A stretch of DNA of 64,000 nt from Chitinophagales bacterium (GTDB taxonomy: Bacteria > Bacteroidota > Bacteroidia > Chitinophagales > CAIOSU01): NCBI GenBank assembly GCA_026003335.1, contig BPHB01000003.1:129013-193012 (forward strand). The letters run 5' to 3'. Every line of letters begins with the position of its first letter. Position 1 is the stretch's first letter. Shown here piece after piece: positions 20,548-27,914 of the stretch. The notes below the pieces were generated by a model. It did no database searches. It saw nothing but the letters and a program-made list of their open reading frames with translations, and was not told the DNA's origin. The translations under genes were made by a program, and so were the position numbers.

Positions 20548-20967
20548 TCATTTTTTCAGGAAGCTCAGTATGGCTAAGCGGTAGCCATCAAGTCCAAGTC
20601 CGGCTATTATGCCCTTGCAAACGGGAGAGAGAAGCGATTTGTGGCGAAATTCTTCCCGCGCATACGGATTGGAGATATGCACTTCCACCACAGGTGTGGA
20701 AACCGCAGCCACCGCATCAGCCAAAGCAACCGAGGTGTGGGTATATCCTCCGGCATTCAATATAATGCCATCATAAGAGAAACCCACCTCGTGCAGTTTG
20801 TTAATCAGTTCGCCTTCCACATTGCTCTGATAGTATGCAAGATGAATAGAGGAAAATTCGTCTTTAAGTTTCCGGTAATAATCGTCAAAAGAAACGTTGC
20901 CATAGATTTCCGGCTGTCTTTTCCCCAACAAATTCAGATTGGGTCCGTTGATAATAATCAGCTTCAT
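20548..20967 (-). CDS. aroQ: type II 3-dehydroquinate dehydratase
   Basis: 139 aa. MKLIIINGPNLNLLGKRQPEIYG and HISNPYAREEFR motifs. Confidence 0.92.
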   Translation of the reverse strand: MKLIIINGPNLNLLGKRQPEIYGNVSFDDYYRKLKDEFSSIHLAYYQSNVEGELINKLHEVGFSYDGIILNAGGYTHTSVALADAVAAVSTPVVEVHISNPYAREEFRHKSLLSPVCKGIIAGLGLDGYRLAILSFLKK

Positions 20968-21010
20968 ATTTACCTCTAAAGTTAATTTTCATCCTGTAAA
21001 CTTTGGTAAC

Positions 21011-21925
21011 ATGGCATGGACGAGCAGCATAAAGGGTTTTACTGCTTATCTGAAGCTGGAGCGTTCTCTTTCAAAAAACACGGTTGCTGCCTATGAGCGG
21101 GATATCCAATTGCTGGAGGATTTTCTTAAAGAAAAAGAATATGCCGTCACCCCGCAGGAAATTACCCCTGCCTTGTTGCGGGAGTTCATCACCTGGATAA
21201 GTGAAAGAGGTTTTAAAGATCGCTCGCAGGCGCGCATCCTTTCGGGGGTAAGGGCTTTTTACAAATACCTGCTTACAGAAGATATGACCGATAAAAATCC
21301 TACTCTGCTGGTAGAAGGTCCCAAGTTGAGTCGTAAGCTGCCTGATGTATTAAGTTATGAAGAGATAAATGCCATCATTGATGCTATTGACTTGAGCAAG
21401 CCGGAGGGCATGCGCAACAAAGCCATGCTGGAAACTTTGTATAGCTGCGGCTTGCGTGTCTCCGAGCTGATTAATCTGAAAATTTCCAATCTTCATCTCA
21501 ATCTGAATTATATCAAAGTAACCGGTAAGGGGAATAAGGAGCGTTTGGTGCCCATCGGGGATGTAGCGGTAAAATACATTCAGATTTACCGACAGGAGGT
21601 GCGCTCCCATATCCGCGTAAAAAAGGGCTGTGAAGATATTTTATTCCTGAACAGGTGGGGAGGGAAGTTGTCGCGTATAATGGTGTTTTTGCTCATCAAA
21701 CAACTGGCGCTTCAGGCTGGAATCAAAAAGAACATCAGTCCGCATACATTCAGGCATTCATTTGCTACGCATCTGGTTGAGGGTGGGGCCAATCTGCGGG
21801 CTGTGCAGGAAATGCTGGGACACGCTTCTATCACTACCACTGAAATATATACCCACCTGGATCGTCATTACCTGCGTGATACCGTACTCCGGTTTCATCC
21901 GCGCTATAATCAAAGCGGACTGTAA
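21011..21925 (+). CDS. xerD: site-specific tyrosine recombinase XerD
   Basis: ATG at 21011 (MAWTSSIKGFTAYLKLERSLS). The N-terminal SAM-like domain, the catalytic residues R..HxxR..Y (HTFRHSFATHL, TTEIYTH), and the divergent aroQ neighbour are all typical. Confidence 0.85.
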   Translation: MAWTSSIKGFTAYLKLERSLSKNTVAAYERDIQLLEDFLKEKEYAVTPQEITPALLREFITWISERGFKDRSQARILSGVRAFYKYLLTEDMTDKNPTLLVEGPKLSRKLPDVLSYEEINAIIDAIDLSKPEGMRNKAMLETLYSCGLRVSELINLKISNLHLNLNYIKVTGKGNKERLVPIGDVAVKYIQIYRQEVRSHIRVKKGCEDILFLNRWGGKLSRIMVFLLIKQLALQAGIKKNISPHTFRHSFATHLVEGGANLRAVQEMLGHASITTTEIYTHLDRHYLRDTVLRFHPRYNQSGL

Positions 21926-23581: not shown

Positions 23582-24784
23582 TTATGTTTCTGTAGCACAG
23601 ACTATACATTGTGGATCGCGGGATACTTTGGCGCCATACCAGCGCAGGATACCGGGTTGGGTAAAGCCATACCCCATCTTGGGCCATTGAGCATAAATAT
23701 TTTCTCTCCGGTTGGCCCAGATATAAAAATCAGCAGTAAGATCCTCTTCCAGACTCCGTATGCCGGTATCCATCCCTCTGGAAAGCTCTACCAGAGCCAG
23801 CTTGACCATCAGGTTGGCAATAGGAGCAATATCTGATGAGAGGCCTACCTGTACCAGGGCATGCCGATCCTCTTCACTGGTATAGGCCGGTAGCAGTTTT
23901 TTAGCCTGCTTCATCTGTGATATTTCTTCGTCATCGCTGCCTGCCTGCCGGATATTCTGTGAGTAAAGGCAATTGTAACACGGACCGGTGAAAGGTCTTA
24001 CCCGGAGCACATCGCCACCGGCAGCCCGGGTGAGGGCTCGTCCGTAGATGGCTGTAATTTTCAGGTTCAGCGATATATCATTAATCATAAAGCGGCTGCG
24101 GTCATTATCGGTGGCTGCTATAAGGAGGTCTGCCTGGCTGAGGTAGGGTAGGCATGCATCGCGGTGCTGTACAATGTCTTTTTCCAGCGCGATGACCGAG
24201 GCAAATGGGTTTTTCTGCAGCAACAGATCTTTTACTGCCCATGTTTTATATCGGCCCAGGTCTTGAATACCGCAGATGTGTCGGGCGATATTGGAAGCTT
24301 CCAGGCGGTCATAATCTATAAGGATAAATTTACCTATGCCGGCTTTTGCCAACTCCAGAGCAATAGCCGAACCTCCACTGCCCAGGCCAATAACAGCAAC
24401 CGTTTTTGCCGCCAGTGCATCCGTTTCCAGGAGGCCTTCGCTGCGTGCAGATAATGCTTTGCCGTTGCTGATAATTATTAATGTGCATTCGGTGATGGAT
24501 GCACCATTTTTATAAAAAGCTTTGCCGTTTAATTTTCCTTCGTTGTTACAGTAGTGAATAATAATAGCTTCTTTTTCGCTCTGTTCAGCCGGATTCATTG
24601 ACGATATGCCCGAATAAAGTAGACAGGTTAATGGTTTGCCGTATGGATTTGCAAGATGATCCGGATAGGCGTGGAATACCGTATTTTCATCCAGGGCAAA
24701 GGCTATGCCTATAAGCGGTTCAGGGGTTGTGTTTTCGACAAGTTCATTGGTATGCAGCAGAAAGAGATAAACGCAGGGAAGCAT
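23582..24784 (-). CDS. ThiF/MoeB/E1-like adenylyltransferase with about 125-aa N-terminal extension
   Basis: 400 aa. Nucleotide loop VAVIGLGSGGSAIALELAKAGIGKFILIDYDRLEASNIARH and the ATDNDRSR motif. Two CxxC pairs (C269/C272, C393/C396). Confidence 0.85.
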   Translation of the reverse strand: MLPCVYLFLLHTNELVENTTPEPLIGIAFALDENTVFHAYPDHLANPYGKPLTCLLYSGISSMNPAEQSEKEAIIIHYCNNEGKLNGKAFYKNGASITECTLIIISNGKALSARSEGLLETDALAAKTVAVIGLGSGGSAIALELAKAGIGKFILIDYDRLEASNIARHICGIQDLGRYKTWAVKDLLLQKNPFASVIALEKDIVQHRDACLPYLSQADLLIAATDNDRSRFMINDISLNLKITAIYGRALTRAAGGDVLRVRPFTGPCYNCLYSQNIRQAGSDDEEISQMKQAKKLLPAYTSEEDRHALVQVGLSSDIAPIANLMVKLALVELSRGMDTGIRSLEEDLTADFYIWANRRENIYAQWPKMGYGFTQPGILRWYGAKVSRDPQCIVCATET

Positions 24785-24792
24785 GTAAGGAG

Positions 24793-24978
24793 TTAGAAGA
24801 ATCCGTCTTTATAGATCTGGTCAACGATAATTTCATTGGGCTTTAGCGTTTCATCTTCAGCGGGTTTGATGATGAGCTCTCCTGTTGTGGGATCAAAGGT
24901 GAGCTTCTTCTGAGAAGAATCCGAGTTTTTCTTCGCCATTTCTTCGGCTACTTTTTTGGGGTCTGATTCCTTGGTCAT
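24793..24978 (-). CDS. 61-aa charged small protein of unknown function (candidate modifier or substrate of the E1/E2/JAB cassette)
   Basis: ATG-initiated ORF that exactly fills the E2-E1 gap (10 nt and 8 nt spacers). Sequence MTKESDPKKVAEEMAKKNSDSSQKKLTFDPTTGELIIKPAEDETLKPNEIIVDQIYKDGFF. Coding status is inferred from its placement. Confidence 0.55.
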   Translation of the reverse strand: MTKESDPKKVAEEMAKKNSDSSQKKLTFDPTTGELIIKPAEDETLKPNEIIVDQIYKDGFF

Positions 24979-24988
24979 AATCCTAAAG

Positions 24989-25435
24989 TTAATACTGATG
25001 TTTTAAATAGTAATCAATGGGTTTTCCACTGATACGGTGTCCCTCATAAGCTTCCAGCCACATGCGGGCTTTGATGAGCACATTATAAAAAGTAAGGTTG
25101 GGATGCCAGTGACTGGGCTTAAAGGTGCACAGGGAAGGGAAGCCGTCACGTGGCTTGAGGAGGTGCATGTGCATATCCTGCTGATAATCGGAGAGTTTTT
25201 TCCCGTGATAGTCTGTAAGGCTTCCCGGATAGGTGATTACTACTTCAGGAATGGAATTGGGCATATCAGCGGGCACATACAGACGAATCAGATATCTATT
25301 CTTCAGGTTGGTGGTCATCCATCCTTCCAGCAGAATCTGTTGGAACAGGTATCGGGGTTTAAAGGAAGGGAAATAAATATGGAGCAGCTCCAATTCTTTT
25401 TCCAGACGTTTTTGCTGTGCCGGTGTCCAGATCAT
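24989..25435 (-). CDS. prokaryotic E2/UBC-like protein
   Basis: 148 aa. N-terminal helix QQKRLEKELELL, flap YLIRLYVPADMPNSIPEVV, then HMH-x12-C103-TFKPSHWHP, mirroring the E2 pattern HPN..C..W.P. C103 is the only cysteine. Confidence 0.7.
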   Translation of the reverse strand: MIWTPAQQKRLEKELELLHIYFPSFKPRYLFQQILLEGWMTTNLKNRYLIRLYVPADMPNSIPEVVITYPGSLTDYHGKKLSDYQQDMHMHLLKPRDGFPSLCTFKPSHWHPNLTFYNVLIKARMWLEAYEGHRISGKPIDYYLKHQY

Positions 25436-25438
25436 GAT

Positions 25439-26374
25439 TTAATCAAACAGTTTGAGACTTTGCATCAGCCGGCTTATGCGGCTTTTCCGCCTTTTCTCGG
25501 AGCGAAACACATTCAGCAGCTCCTGGAACCCCACCTTTTCTACCACATCCGGTTTGCTTTCGGGGAAGTTATGAGGGAAGCGTATTTCATAGCGTGCGCT
25601 ATCATGACTGAAGGAGATAGCAATGCGCTTATCGGCAAGCTGCAGCAGTTCCACATTCTGAAGGTCTTTGCGCTCCCTGAGTTTGTCAAATACCTCTCGC
25701 AGATAGCGCTGTCCTTCGGCTTTAGTCCAGAAAGAATCTGCGGGAAGATCCGGCTTTCCCGGATTTTTAAGGATCGTTTCAGGGGGCATTTGCTCAGGTG
25801 CAACTAAACTGCAGGACACCTGATCTGCAGCGGTATGGGGATGACGAAAATGTTTTTCCATGTCCGAAGGAAGGCTTTGCCTGACAGGACTGGTTCCTTC
25901 CAGTACCTGCCAGCTGCAGCGGTGATGCCGGTCAAGATTATCGCGCAAGAAAAGGAATGCCCCTAGTGAAACCTCTGCCTGCTCATCCATATTGACAATG
26001 CAGATAACAAAACGGGAAAATCCCGTGCCGCGCAGAGCATTTCTCATGGTGAGGATATCCCCAGGACTCGGTTCATTAAAACGCAAGTGGTGGTGGGAGT
26101 GCCAGGCTCCGATATGTTCCAGTCCATGGGCATGATGCAGCAGTGCACCCCACTGGTGCAGATAACCTATGTCCTGATTAAAATGAGCCCGCCCATGGAT
26201 GGCCTTTTGTCCAGGACCGATGGCAAACTCTACCACCGGAAATCCCTCCTTAGTCCACAAACCGAACAGATCGCCTCCGGTCTCGGCTTCAGGAAAGTCT
26301 ATTACATAACGACTGATATACTGCAATTCACTCTCATAAATAAATATTTTTCCTAATTGTATAGGGTCATGCAT
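25439..26374 (-). CDS. JAB/MPN+ (JAMM) metalloprotease with C-terminal extension
   Basis: 311 aa. Catalytic Glu context PEAETGGDLFG and JAMM motif WHSHHHLRFNEPSPGD. Its stop is 3 nt from the E2 start (TAAatcATG). Confidence 0.8.
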   Translation of the reverse strand: MHDPIQLGKIFIYESELQYISRYVIDFPEAETGGDLFGLWTKEGFPVVEFAIGPGQKAIHGRAHFNQDIGYLHQWGALLHHAHGLEHIGAWHSHHHLRFNEPSPGDILTMRNALRGTGFSRFVICIVNMDEQAEVSLGAFLFLRDNLDRHHRCSWQVLEGTSPVRQSLPSDMEKHFRHPHTAADQVSCSLVAPEQMPPETILKNPGKPDLPADSFWTKAEGQRYLREVFDKLRERKDLQNVELLQLADKRIAISFSHDSARYEIRFPHNFPESKPDVVEKVGFQELLNVFRSEKRRKSRISRLMQSLKLFD

Positions 26375-26498: not shown

Positions 26499-27914
26499 TT
26501 AATGCCGTATGTGACGGATAAAGATATCTTTCAGCTCGCTGGCTGAATATTTCCGGCTGTAATCCAGAATCGTTTCCGGGTTGCTGTCCAAAAGGATACG
26601 AAAAAAGTCTTCGTGTAAAGCATCATCCATGAGCTGTTCCGTTTCACGGATACGCTGAAAGGTGAGCTTTTTATCCTGGTCGCGGTCTTGCAGGTAGGCT
26701 GCAATTTTACTGAGCGCCTTTTGTTTGGTAGAATCCTCATCCCGGATGATGATGGCATCTTGTTGCTGCTCCCGTTCACGCGCCTGAAGCAGCCAGGTTT
26801 TTATTTGCTGGTGCACGAGGTTATTGTATGTTGTGATATTGTAATTGTAAATAGCCTTATCTCCGCCAGAAAAAGCATCCAGCGGAGCTTCAGCCAGCGA
26901 AGTATATATTTCCTGCAATTTGCTGGCGGGCAAACTCCAAAGGGCTTGTTCGGCAGGTTTTACAATGGTATTAAACCAGATATGGATATTGTAGCGATTC
27001 ACGAAATTCACAAACAGGGGCATCTCTTGCCAGTTTTGGCGAAGGGGATTGACCATAATGCATAATGTGCGCTGATGGTCTTTGCAATAGCGCAGGAAGA
27101 ATTGGAAATTCTGCATCAGCTTTTCAAAACTGCCGTTTATCCGTATGCGTTCATAGGTTCGTGCCGTGGCCCCATCCATGGAAATATTAAAATGAAAATT
27201 TCCTCTGGAGAGGTATTCTTTTACTTTATCGTTAAGCACGGTGCCGTTGGTGGCAATTACCATTTTAAGATCGGGATTGAGTTCAAAAACCATATCCCAT
27301 ATTTTATAGTAGAGCTTGATCAGAAAAGGCTCTCCACCATTGAAACGCGCTTCGTGCAGATGAGGAATAAACTCCCGCAGCTCGTTTAAAAATTTGTCCC
27401 CGTATGGCGATTTGAGCGGAGGAAGCTTCTCCCGGTCACGTCTGATAACGGAGCTGAGCATACCGTTGCACATGGTGCAGGCGAGATTGCAGGTGTTGCT
27501 CAGTTCAAACTCAATGATGGAGGGATAGTCCGTTTTCGGAAAATCATTATCATATGCTTTAGCCAAAATGTTGGTGAAGTTATTTTCAAGCAGATGATTC
27601 CGGCAGGTCTGGCAGCCATACTCCAACTGATGGTTTTTTATGCCTTCACGAATGCGATTAAAGTTGGGACTGTTCCAGATTTCTTTGATAGACTTATTTT
27701 CAGTATACTTCTCTGCACGATGAAAGGTTTGCCAGCAGAGGGCTACATCACCCTCTGTGTTGAAATACAGGTTGGAGAAAGGAGCGTGACAGAGCAAACG
27801 GGTGTCGCGAACGATACGGGTTTGATTATAGCGGGCAATTTTTTTGTCCAATGAGGAACGATAACGCGGCACAAAAGGATTAAGCCGGCCTAATATTGCT
27901 TTGATGCGGGACAT
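26499..27914 (-). CDS. radical SAM protein with N-terminal SPASM/twitch-like Cys motif
   Basis: 471 aa. Radical SAM triad C142-NLA-C146-TM-C149 (ELSNTCNLACTMCNG), and GGEPFL. Upstream of it are C42-x12-G-x4-C60 and C101-QT-C104. Confidence 0.8.
   Translation of the reverse strand: MSRIKAILGRLNPFVPRYRSSLDKKIARYNQTRIVRDTRLLCHAPFSNLYFNTEGDVALCWQTFHRAEKYTENKSIKEIWNSPNFNRIREGIKNHQLEYGCQTCRNHLLENNFTNILAKAYDNDFPKTDYPSIIEFELSNTCNLACTMCNGMLSSVIRRDREKLPPLKSPYGDKFLNELREFIPHLHEARFNGGEPFLIKLYYKIWDMVFELNPDLKMVIATNGTVLNDKVKEYLSRGNFHFNISMDGATARTYERIRINGSFEKLMQNFQFFLRYCKDHQRTLCIMVNPLRQNWQEMPLFVNFVNRYNIHIWFNTIVKPAEQALWSLPASKLQEIYTSLAEAPLDAFSGGDKAIYNYNITTYNNLVHQQIKTWLLQAREREQQQDAIIIRDEDSTKQKALSKIAAYLQDRDQDKKLTFQRIRETEQLMDDALHEDFFRILLDSNPETILDYSRKYSASELKDIFIRHIRH

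Follow-up and report, generated by a model that had tools for sequence, protein, structure and literature searches.

A compact E1, E2 and JAB gene cassette with a 61-residue candidate modifier ending in Phe-Phe

In the metagenome-assembled genome of a Chitinophagales bacterium, a stretch of 64,000 nucleotides (contig BPHB01000003.1, positions 129,013 to 193,012; hereafter the window, whose own numbering is used for all its features) contains four adjacent minus-strand genes that form a putative operon. Read in the direction of transcription, they encode a JAB-type metalloprotease of 311 residues (25439-26374), an E2-like conjugating enzyme of 148 residues (24989-25435), a small protein of 61 residues (24793-24978) and an E1-like adenylating enzyme of 400 residues (23582-24784), and the gaps between consecutive genes measure 3, 10 and 8 nucleotides. 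A preliminary description of this DNA had proposed these four open reading frames (ORFs), and both their positions and their tight spacing were reproduced at the same coordinates. The cassette proteins are annotated as 'hypothetical' or 'ThiF family'. Here we examine what such a set of enzymes might conjugate, and suggest the small protein as the candidate.

A recurrent cassette and its three enzymes

The arrangement is widespread. We collected about 38 loci by a scan with an E2 profile, taking one genome per species, together with look-ups of individual homologues, and gene order was read from phmmer searches in which the four proteins of the window served as queries. More than 25 independent loci share the order JAB, E2, small ORF, E1, and because they do so at protein identities that fall to ~35-50% between loci, with intergenic distances equally short, the arrangement is not a product of chance. 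The loci belong to Bacteroidota, Verrucomicrobiota, Cyanobacteria, Chloroflexota, Myxococcota and Cryosericota, and within Bacteroidota they extend over Chitinophagales, Cyclobacteriaceae, Mucilaginibacter, Bacteroidales, Crocinitomicaceae, Saprospiraceae and Chryseobacterium; the further taxa include Verrucomicrobiia, several Cyanobacteria (Microcoleus, Hormoscilla, Prochloron and Trichodesmium), Myxococcales and Cryosericum. Exceptions to the four-gene order fall at contig ends, in decayed copies (L024 and L032) and in fusion or paralogue variants. One of the decayed copies lies on an Actinomycetota contig and consists of scrambled E1 and E2 fragments (L032:7144-8240); another, on plasmid pREB3 of Acaryochloris marina, has an IS630 element inserted directly after the E2 gene (L039:5063-7565). 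A distant variant on the conjugative plasmid pBb323S2b of Bradyrhizobium barranii (L040:4844-11214) comprises an MPN protein, an E2-like protein and a 483-residue ThiF protein whose N-terminal part resembles a small modifier that has been fused and has diverged, followed by a protein with a dsDNA-nuclease domain and a TIR protein.

The E1 (23582-24784, minus strand) is a Cap2/ATG7-like adenylating enzyme with one adenylation domain. The ThiF profile matches it at 3e-33, with a single ThiF domain in the 400 residues, and the 'E1-E2' profiles that PADLOC holds for CBASS (cyclic oligonucleotide-based antiphage signalling system) reach 1.8e-36. The adenylation domain occupies residues 119-400 (23585-24430), and its alignment across 36 homologues leaves a complete set of invariant positions, comprising the nucleotide loop G133-x-G135-S-x-G138, D157/D159, N165, R168, K180 and D226 as well as a zinc site, C269-x-x-C272 ... 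C393-x-x-C396. With these adenylation residues intact, the earlier assignment of a ThiF-type E1 is secure. Ser289 and Tyr301 are likewise invariant in the crossover region, which is the usual position of E1 catalytic residues. By sequence, the E1 matches ThiF, MoeB, MccB, UBA5 and the SUMO E1 in the PDB and, more weakly, Cap2 and BubCD; by fold, a Foldseek search with the AlphaFold2 (AF2) model of an orthologue of 49% identity returned Cap2 as the best match (7to3_A, 2.9e-11, 418 aligned columns) and BubCD as the second, with Atg7-Atg3 also among the matches. E1 and E2 had been described as separate proteins, and each has its own gene in the window and in every related locus.

A feature that the preliminary description did not mention is a Cap2/ATG7-like extra domain at the N-terminus of the E1. 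This alpha/beta domain (residues 1-118; 24431-24784, minus strand) is kept in all 36 aligned E1s, with D32 and H38 invariant; in the AF2 model of the orthologue it is predicted with a local distance difference test score (pLDDT) of ~90, and the Foldseek alignment of that model to Cap2 is longer than the adenylation domain alone. The linker of Cap2, a homologue of the N-terminal domain of ATG7, holds the E2 in position (10.1101/2022.03.31.486616). The E1 N-terminal domain may correspond to this Cap2 linker and to the E2-docking domain of ATG7, an equivalence that we infer from the models, since searches of the PDB and PADLOC with the domain alone gave no sequence match, be it to the Cap2 linker, to ATG7 or to peptide-clamp domains. 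At the other end of the protein, some orthologues, mostly cyanobacterial, carry a C-terminal extension that ends in ...(D/E)N(I/F)F(A/G/R) (P0125, P0149, P0162, P0167 and P0168) and is similar to the DGFF-x terminus of the small protein described below; such a tail could be autoinhibitory or self-conjugating.

The E2-like protein (24989-25435, minus strand) is more diverged. Neither Pfam nor NCBIfam has a match for it, two homologues bear a precomputed PF26395 tag, and sequence and profile searches against the PDB gave nothing significant, with Ubc13 and RWD proteins at E ~0.8 aligned at the flap and the cysteine. An E2 profile of PADLOC nevertheless matches it over almost its full length (2.7e-5), and the AF2 model built from a 20-sequence alignment is confident (pLDDT 91.2, predicted template modelling score 0.86). 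When this model was compared with the PDB by Foldseek, 50 of the 50 top matches were of the UEV/UBC fold (probability ~1, template modelling scores of 0.4-0.57), among them Tsg101, UbcA1, Cdc34 and UBE2D2. Cys103 (codon 25127-25129), H91, W110 and H133 are invariant across the 20 homologues, and the model places Cys103 at the end of a beta-hairpin formed by strands 92-96 and 99-102, an arrangement reported for Cap2, ATG3 and ATG10 (10.1101/2022.03.31.486616). The flap motif YLIRLYVPADMPNSIPEV and the single cysteine, Cys103, on which an E2 had been proposed are both found in the 148-residue protein, and the fold of the model, the PADLOC match and the invariance of Cys103 bear out an E2 with a catalytic cysteine.

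The first gene (25439-26374, minus strand) encodes a JAB-UEV protein, in which an N-terminal JAMM/MPN+ metalloprotease domain is followed by a variable linker and a C-terminal domain resembling ubiquitin E2 variants (UEVs). JAB profiles of PADLOC match residues 9-147 at 1e-12, and the Cap3-type model TIGR02256 matches weakly (2.2e-5, below the cutoff of that model). The core motif H92-S-H94...S103-x-x-D106 (26057-26101) supplies the zinc ligands and the catalytic serine, and the partner glutamate is Glu31 (codon 26282-26284); E31, H92, S93, H94, S103 and D106 are all invariant in an alignment of 26 orthologues. Both motifs quoted earlier for this protein, PEAETGG (with E31) and WHSHHHLRFNEPSPGD, are present, and identification of a JAMM protease stands on the complete invariant E...HxH...S..D motif together with the PADLOC match.

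The C-terminal domain of the JAB protein (approximately residues 205-311; 25442-25762, minus strand) was likewise absent from the preliminary description, and was delimited by profile searches. It is composed of a helix, strands and an 'FPxxFPxxxP' flap and lacks a conserved cysteine in the 26 orthologues. Its profile matches the UEV-like domain of VPS37A in the PDB at 1.4e-3, followed by the UEV of BABAM2/BRE, UBE2L3 and UBE2D2, and every inspected entry among the 60 matches listed has a UBC/UEV fold. A comparison by hhalign with the cassette's own E2 family gave E = 8e-4 to 3e-3, with helix 1, the strands and the flap in register. On these profile alignments we read the domain as UEV-like, that is, as a catalytically inactive domain of the E2 fold. 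The cassette encodes the three enzymes of a generic E1-E2-JAB system: an intact E1 adenylation domain, a UBC-type E2 with a cysteine and a complete JAMM protease.

The small protein as a candidate modifier

What would these enzymes conjugate? The preliminary description had called the cassette one with no recognisable beta-grasp modifier and had regarded the 61-residue product as merely a charged ORF. The first part is literally correct, as the protein lacks a beta-grasp fold and searches of Pfam and NCBIfam gave no match to a ubiquitin-like protein (Ubl) family; that the cassette has no modifier is not supported, and the 61-residue protein is the best candidate for one. Three features speak for it, namely a slot conserved across phyla, a C-terminal motif followed by a tail, and fusions to E1 and JAB.

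The candidate mini-modifier (24793-24978, minus strand) begins with a charged N-terminal helix, continues with a 'KLTFDPTTGELIIK' hairpin and ends in 'VVDQIYKDGFF', the codons of the conserved GFF lying at 24796-24804. It occupies the same slot between E2 and E1 in more than 25 loci from at least six phyla; phmmer matched it in 24 of 32 loci, and its alignment is conserved from Bacteroidota to Cyanobacteria and Myxococcota. The DGFF motif (...VVDQIYKDGFF) is present in 62 of 62 close homologues, where it is followed by 0-17 non-conserved residues: none in eight proteins, one in 23, two in five, three in seven, four in 12, and up to 17 in the remainder. The window copy stops exactly at the conserved GFF, so it would need no trimming. 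Among 1.84 billion representative proteins, a profile search returned 134 matches, of which ~95, clustered at 50% identity, are small proteins of one architecture, with a variable N-terminus, an 'xFDPxTGELxV' hairpin and a 'P(D/N)xxVVDQIxx' segment that leads into DGFF (58 representatives), DGFA (11), EGFF (7), TGFF (4) or a close variant. After the motif, these proteins carry tails of 0-36 residues of unrelated sequence. A conserved motif followed by a variable tail is the signature of a ubiquitin-type precursor; in the Ubls of type II Bil systems, a conserved glycine is followed by up to nine non-conserved residues (PMC10557695). In one subclade, the otherwise variable tails behind DGFF share a recurrent ...AA ending (AKAA, KIAA, ARKAA, GRAA or CKAA; P0235, P0243, P0251, P0254, P0264, P0267, P0273, P0275, P0306, P0312 and P0321), and many of these proteins have N-terminal extensions that bring them to 100-150 residues in total.

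The same motif marks the junction in every fusion of the small protein. Four independent in-frame fusions join it to the E1 (P0162, P0167, P0291 and P0309), one of them, P0167, from a Spirulina locus of three genes in which the small protein is not encoded separately (L034:9001-10488); in a fifth protein it is joined to the JAB domain, reading ...KDGFF and then, directly across the junction, VQEKVIIYESELERIA...ETGG (P0315); and tandem or repeat forms also exist (P0301 and P0363). Since GF(F/A) is itself the junction, release of the small protein from such fusions would require a cut directly after the motif, and a precedent is offered by the BubAB fusion, which is cleaved by the JAB domain of BubCD after a conserved glycine (PMC11601596). 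In one locus, from Muribaculaceae, the stretch between E2 and E1 holds two paralogues of the small gene, whose products end in ...DGGWAAV and ...KDGFAA (L028:6302-7005). Between these two paralogues lies a 60-residue ORF with a 'YDPRTGEFV' motif and a hydrophobic C-terminus. In a further protein, P0286, the small protein is fused to a C-terminal region with hydrophobic stretches that are possibly membrane-spanning. Matches of the small ORF to RibLong and YPDG were rejected as motif-level resemblance to the 'FDPxTGEL' hairpin rather than homology, as were long multi-repeat proteins that appeared in the representative search on account of the same hairpin.

From these patterns we favour, with moderate confidence, the small protein as a conjugated modifier, and we infer the chemical steps, like the target and the biological role, as follows. 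The protein would be made with a ...(D/E)GF(F/A) end and a dispensable tail, or elsewhere in E1-fused, JAB-fused or tandem form, and JAB-UEV would cut directly after the motif to expose a C-terminal phenylalanine carboxylate. The E1 would adenylate this carboxylate with ATP, and the acyl group would pass to Cys103 of the E2; as the E1 lacks an invariant catalytic cysteine, transfer might be direct or might run first through Ser289 or Tyr301 of the E1. Precedents exist for parts of this chemistry: Cap2 acts on cGAS, a non-beta-grasp substrate, and its E1 cysteine is dispensable in vitro (10.1101/2022.03.31.486616), and Bub systems form oxyester intermediates via serine and tyrosine (PMC11601596). 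The E2, probably docked on the N-terminal domain of the E1, would have its thioester resolved by an amine, most likely a lysine of the target protein, and no E3 is encoded. JAB may also strip the tag from targets, with its UEV-like domain possibly serving to bind the tag or to dock JAB on one of the other two enzymes. The C-terminal motif, the variable tail and the motif-joined fusions fit the sequence pattern of a modifier with a trimmed C-terminus, and attachment is the predicted consequence.

Several observations count against a conjugated modifier of this kind. The small protein is without a beta-grasp fold, its elements being one helix, one hairpin and a short helix in an AF2 model of fusion P0167 that is itself of low confidence; the mean pLDDT of the model is 68.7, with values of 53-66 for the small-protein part and for a large portion of the adenylation domain, and it supports no interface by which the small protein would dock into the E1. 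Outside the zinc site, the E1 has no invariant cysteine, C171 being only ~90% conserved among the 36 homologues. E1 substrates usually end in glycine or alanine, and we know of none with a bulky Phe-Phe end.

These points leave room for a different role of the small protein, as an adaptor, regulator or inhibitor (for instance, a pseudo-substrate in the E1 or the JAB), with the conjugated protein encoded elsewhere and possibly being PtuA, PtuB or a phage protein whose C-terminus is suitable. The substrate of the CBASS E1/E2 is an enzyme and not a small tag (10.1101/2022.03.31.486616), which lends this alternative some weight, as do the lack of a beta-grasp fold and the poor modelling of the small protein, the Septu genes that follow the E1 in eight loci (see below), and the ...(D/E)N(I/F)F(A/G/R) tails of some E1s, which resemble the tag end and hint at other substrates. 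An adaptor would not, however, be expected to carry an invariant motif at its extreme C-terminus followed by a tail of arbitrary length and sequence, nor to be joined to E1 or JAB precisely where that motif ends, and among the annotated related loci no constant fifth gene accompanies the four core genes. We therefore regard an adaptor as unlikely, and retain the conjugated modifier as the preferred interpretation of the 61-residue protein.

Genomic context and possible role

The genes around the cassette differ between genomes and are never shared between lineages, and they often belong to defence or conflict systems. In other loci the flanks encode RadC, ThsB-TIR, Mrr, patatin, HNH, NACHT/NB-ARC and PemK proteins, toxin-antitoxin pairs, a resolvase, VapE, BrxC/D and TerB. 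The most regular companion is the Septu pair PtuAB, which stands directly downstream of the E1 gene and on the same strand in eight loci (L002:9905-11849, L010, L011, L012, L015, L035:10239-12372, L036:9286-11312 and L037:9234-11272), with matches of 4e-98 and 7e-114 for PtuA and of 2e-37 and 1e-86 for PtuB, and with at least two PtuA subtypes represented. Such adjacency suggests either functional coupling or a strong tendency to co-locate in defence islands. The window itself has no PtuAB, and pyrR comes after the E1 gene.

We judge it rather probable that the cassette as a whole is a self-contained, horizontally mobile conjugation system, related to type II CBASS Cap2/Cap3 and provided with a dedicated small-protein substrate. 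Its role is probably defence against phages or mobile elements, sometimes coupled to Septu PtuAB, a proposal we hold with less confidence than that of the modifier. Two facts speak against defence: the context described above consists of neighbourhood impressions from ~35 loci rather than a statistical enrichment, and the neighbours in the window are housekeeping genes, with no target or effector gene among them. No relatives of the cassette were found on viral contigs, which argues neither way.

Could the same conjugation serve the cell itself? A housekeeping or stress-regulatory tag, with a role like that of Pup, SAMP or UBact, would suit the window, where pyrR/pyrB, aroQ and xerD are neighbours, and would suit the Cryosericum-type loci, which are flanked by a serine dehydratase and EamA transporters; the guanine-plus-cytosine content of the cassette is likewise not anomalous. 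A housekeeping system would not be expected to be so patchily distributed across distant phyla with no conserved synteny outside the cassette, to lie so often next to known defence genes, or to occur on conjugative plasmids, beside insertion sequence elements and in decayed copies, and the closest relatives of its enzymes are defence proteins. We consider a housekeeping tag rather improbable.

The neighbourhood in the window comprises a radical SAM/SPASM gene, pyrR, pyrB, xerD and aroQ, in keeping with the core genes pyrR/pyrB and the radical SAM gene that had been noted as flanks. Homologues of the radical SAM, pyrR and pyrB genes stand in no other cassette locus; the flanks are specific to this genome, and these three genes are therefore not parts of the cassette. 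The radical SAM/SPASM protein has 471 residues, including a charged C-terminal extension of ~100 residues, and its gene (26499-27914, minus strand) precedes the JAB gene by 124 nucleotides in the same orientation; as it accompanies the cassette in no other genome, it was ruled out as a component. A gene for a XerD-like tyrosine recombinase (20939-21925, plus strand), beside pyrB and aroQ and at a distance of ~1.7 kb from the cassette, probably represents the housekeeping xerD and not the integrase of a mobile element; a distant homologue is found near the cassette in L027 too. Antisense to the E2 and JAB genes runs a 256-residue ORF (25037-25807, plus strand) that is most likely a non-coding shadow ORF.

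Radical SAM/SPASM enzymes often mature peptides, and the proximity of this gene invites a reading of the cassette as a pathway for a ribosomally synthesised and post-translationally modified peptide (RiPP), in which an MccB/PaaA-type E1 modifies or cyclises the C-terminus of the peptide, JAB trims it, the E2 and UEV-like domain act as scaffolds and the radical SAM/SPASM enzyme modifies it further. MccB and PaaA, which match only the adenylation domain, are indeed among the PDB sequence and fold matches of the E1 and have N-terminal extensions of similar length, but we think a RiPP pathway very unlikely, because no sequence match links the E1 N-terminal domain to peptide-clamp domains; because no other locus has the radical SAM gene beside the cassette, and no gene for transport, immunity or export is conserved among the annotated related loci; because a scaffold has no need of the invariant catalytic cysteine that the E2 carries in a confident UBC-type fold; and because the whole peptide is conserved and its variable part follows the motif, the reverse of the usual layout of conserved leader and variable core.

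If the small protein is indeed a mini-modifier, E1/E2 conjugation would be independent of the ubiquitin fold and the adenylation pocket would accept a bulky C-terminus. The cassette would then be a compact, genetically encodable tagging system made up of three enzymes and a tag of ~35-60 residues, as well as an entry point to the origin of ATG7-type E1/E2 pairs. Nor is the family rare, given ~95 tag clusters at 50% identity, many E1 relatives and at least six phyla, and its recurrent pairing with Septu and its defence-gene surroundings suggest that it acts against phages by a mechanism not yet recognised. The most far-reaching form of the proposal would make this the first dedicated non-beta-grasp tag under genuine E1/E2 chemistry, with a Phe-Phe end and precursors matured by JAB-UEV, and a free-standing bacterial counterpart of the autophagy machinery, with a split ATG7-like E1 and hairpin-cysteine E2, that serves phage defence and is sometimes wired to Septu; to this combination as a whole we give slightly less than an even chance.

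Comparison with known conjugation systems

In the accessible literature, each of the bacterial systems characterised so far (CBASS Cap2/Cap3, Bil and Bub) either conjugates an enzyme or uses a beta-grasp protein as its tag, and no non-beta-grasp Phe-Phe tag for E1/E2 chemistry is described there. A literature search did not find a description of the cassette, with an earlier mention in subscription papers being possible, and no model in Pfam, NCBIfam or PADLOC names its proteins. Classes 6a-6d of the 2006 classification have no match to the cassette, and class 6e, which is the Bub family, is excluded. The suggestion that the locus is a distinct and possibly uncharacterised variant is thus sustained, as the cassette falls outside CBASS, Bil, Bub and 6A-MBL.

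The 6A-MBL systems are the easiest to set apart. They combine an E2-E1-JAB triple fusion with a metallo-beta-lactamase partner, whereas the cassette genes are separate and include no metallo-beta-lactamase gene, and model NF058523 matches the cassette only partially and below threshold (56 and 15 bits; cutoff 320). Bub (6E/DUF6527) systems share more with the cassette: their modifier can be a fusion that is cut by the JAB after a C-terminal motif (BubAB), and their E1 is without a catalytic cysteine (PMC11601596). They differ in having beta-grasp Ubls, a serine-type E2 and a DUF6527 serine protease; in the cassette the E2 cysteine is invariant and there is no DUF6527 protein.

Bil systems (BilABCD, types I and II), for which a defence role has been demonstrated, resemble the cassette in their four separate genes for modifier, E2, JAB and E1, in the absence of an E3, and in a modifier that carries a short variable tail after its conserved C-terminal residue (PMC10557695). 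The Bil modifier, however, is a beta-grasp Ubl of one to three domains with a glycine end, whereas the cassette tag ends in GF(F/A); the gene order is Ubl, E2, JAB, E1 in Bil and JAB, E2, small ORF, E1 here; and the cassette E1, unlike that of Bil, has a single adenylation domain and returned no Bil protein among its PDB sequence matches. The cassette is not a Bil system, because modifier fold, gene order and E1 architecture all differ.

Further afield, the eukaryotic ATG7 system with ATG3 and ATG10 shares the hairpin cysteine of the E2 model, and Atg7-Atg3 is among the fold matches of the E1 model; unlike the cassette tag, its modifiers ATG8 and ATG12 are beta-grasp proteins with a glycine end, and homology of the E1 N-terminal domain with that of ATG7 is putative. 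Pup and UBact offer a parallel on the side of the tag, since both are small, largely unstructured, dedicated tags of ~60 residues that are joined to their targets via the C-terminal end. Pup is attached by PafA, a ligase resembling glutamine synthetase, via a side-chain carboxylate, whereas the cassette is without a PafA-type ligase and would use E1/E2 chemistry on the main-chain C-terminus.

The closest relatives of the cassette enzymes, in sequence and in fold, are CBASS Cap2 and Cap3. The preliminary description had noted that no CD-NTase or effector gene is nearby; none lies in the window, and the annotated related loci hold no CD-NTase either. The cassette is not a CBASS system, since it lacks both a CD-NTase and an effector and since its E2 and E1, which in Cap2 are fused, are encoded by separate genes. 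Unlike Cap2, the cassette E1 has no invariant cysteine in the crossover loop, and unlike Cap3, the cassette JAB bears an extra UEV-like domain. Both systems do without an E3 and have a JAB as antagonist or processing enzyme, and on our reading the cassette, like Cap2, would conjugate a non-beta-grasp substrate via its C-terminus, the candidate being, unlike in CBASS, a dedicated protein of ~60 residues that ends in Phe-Phe.

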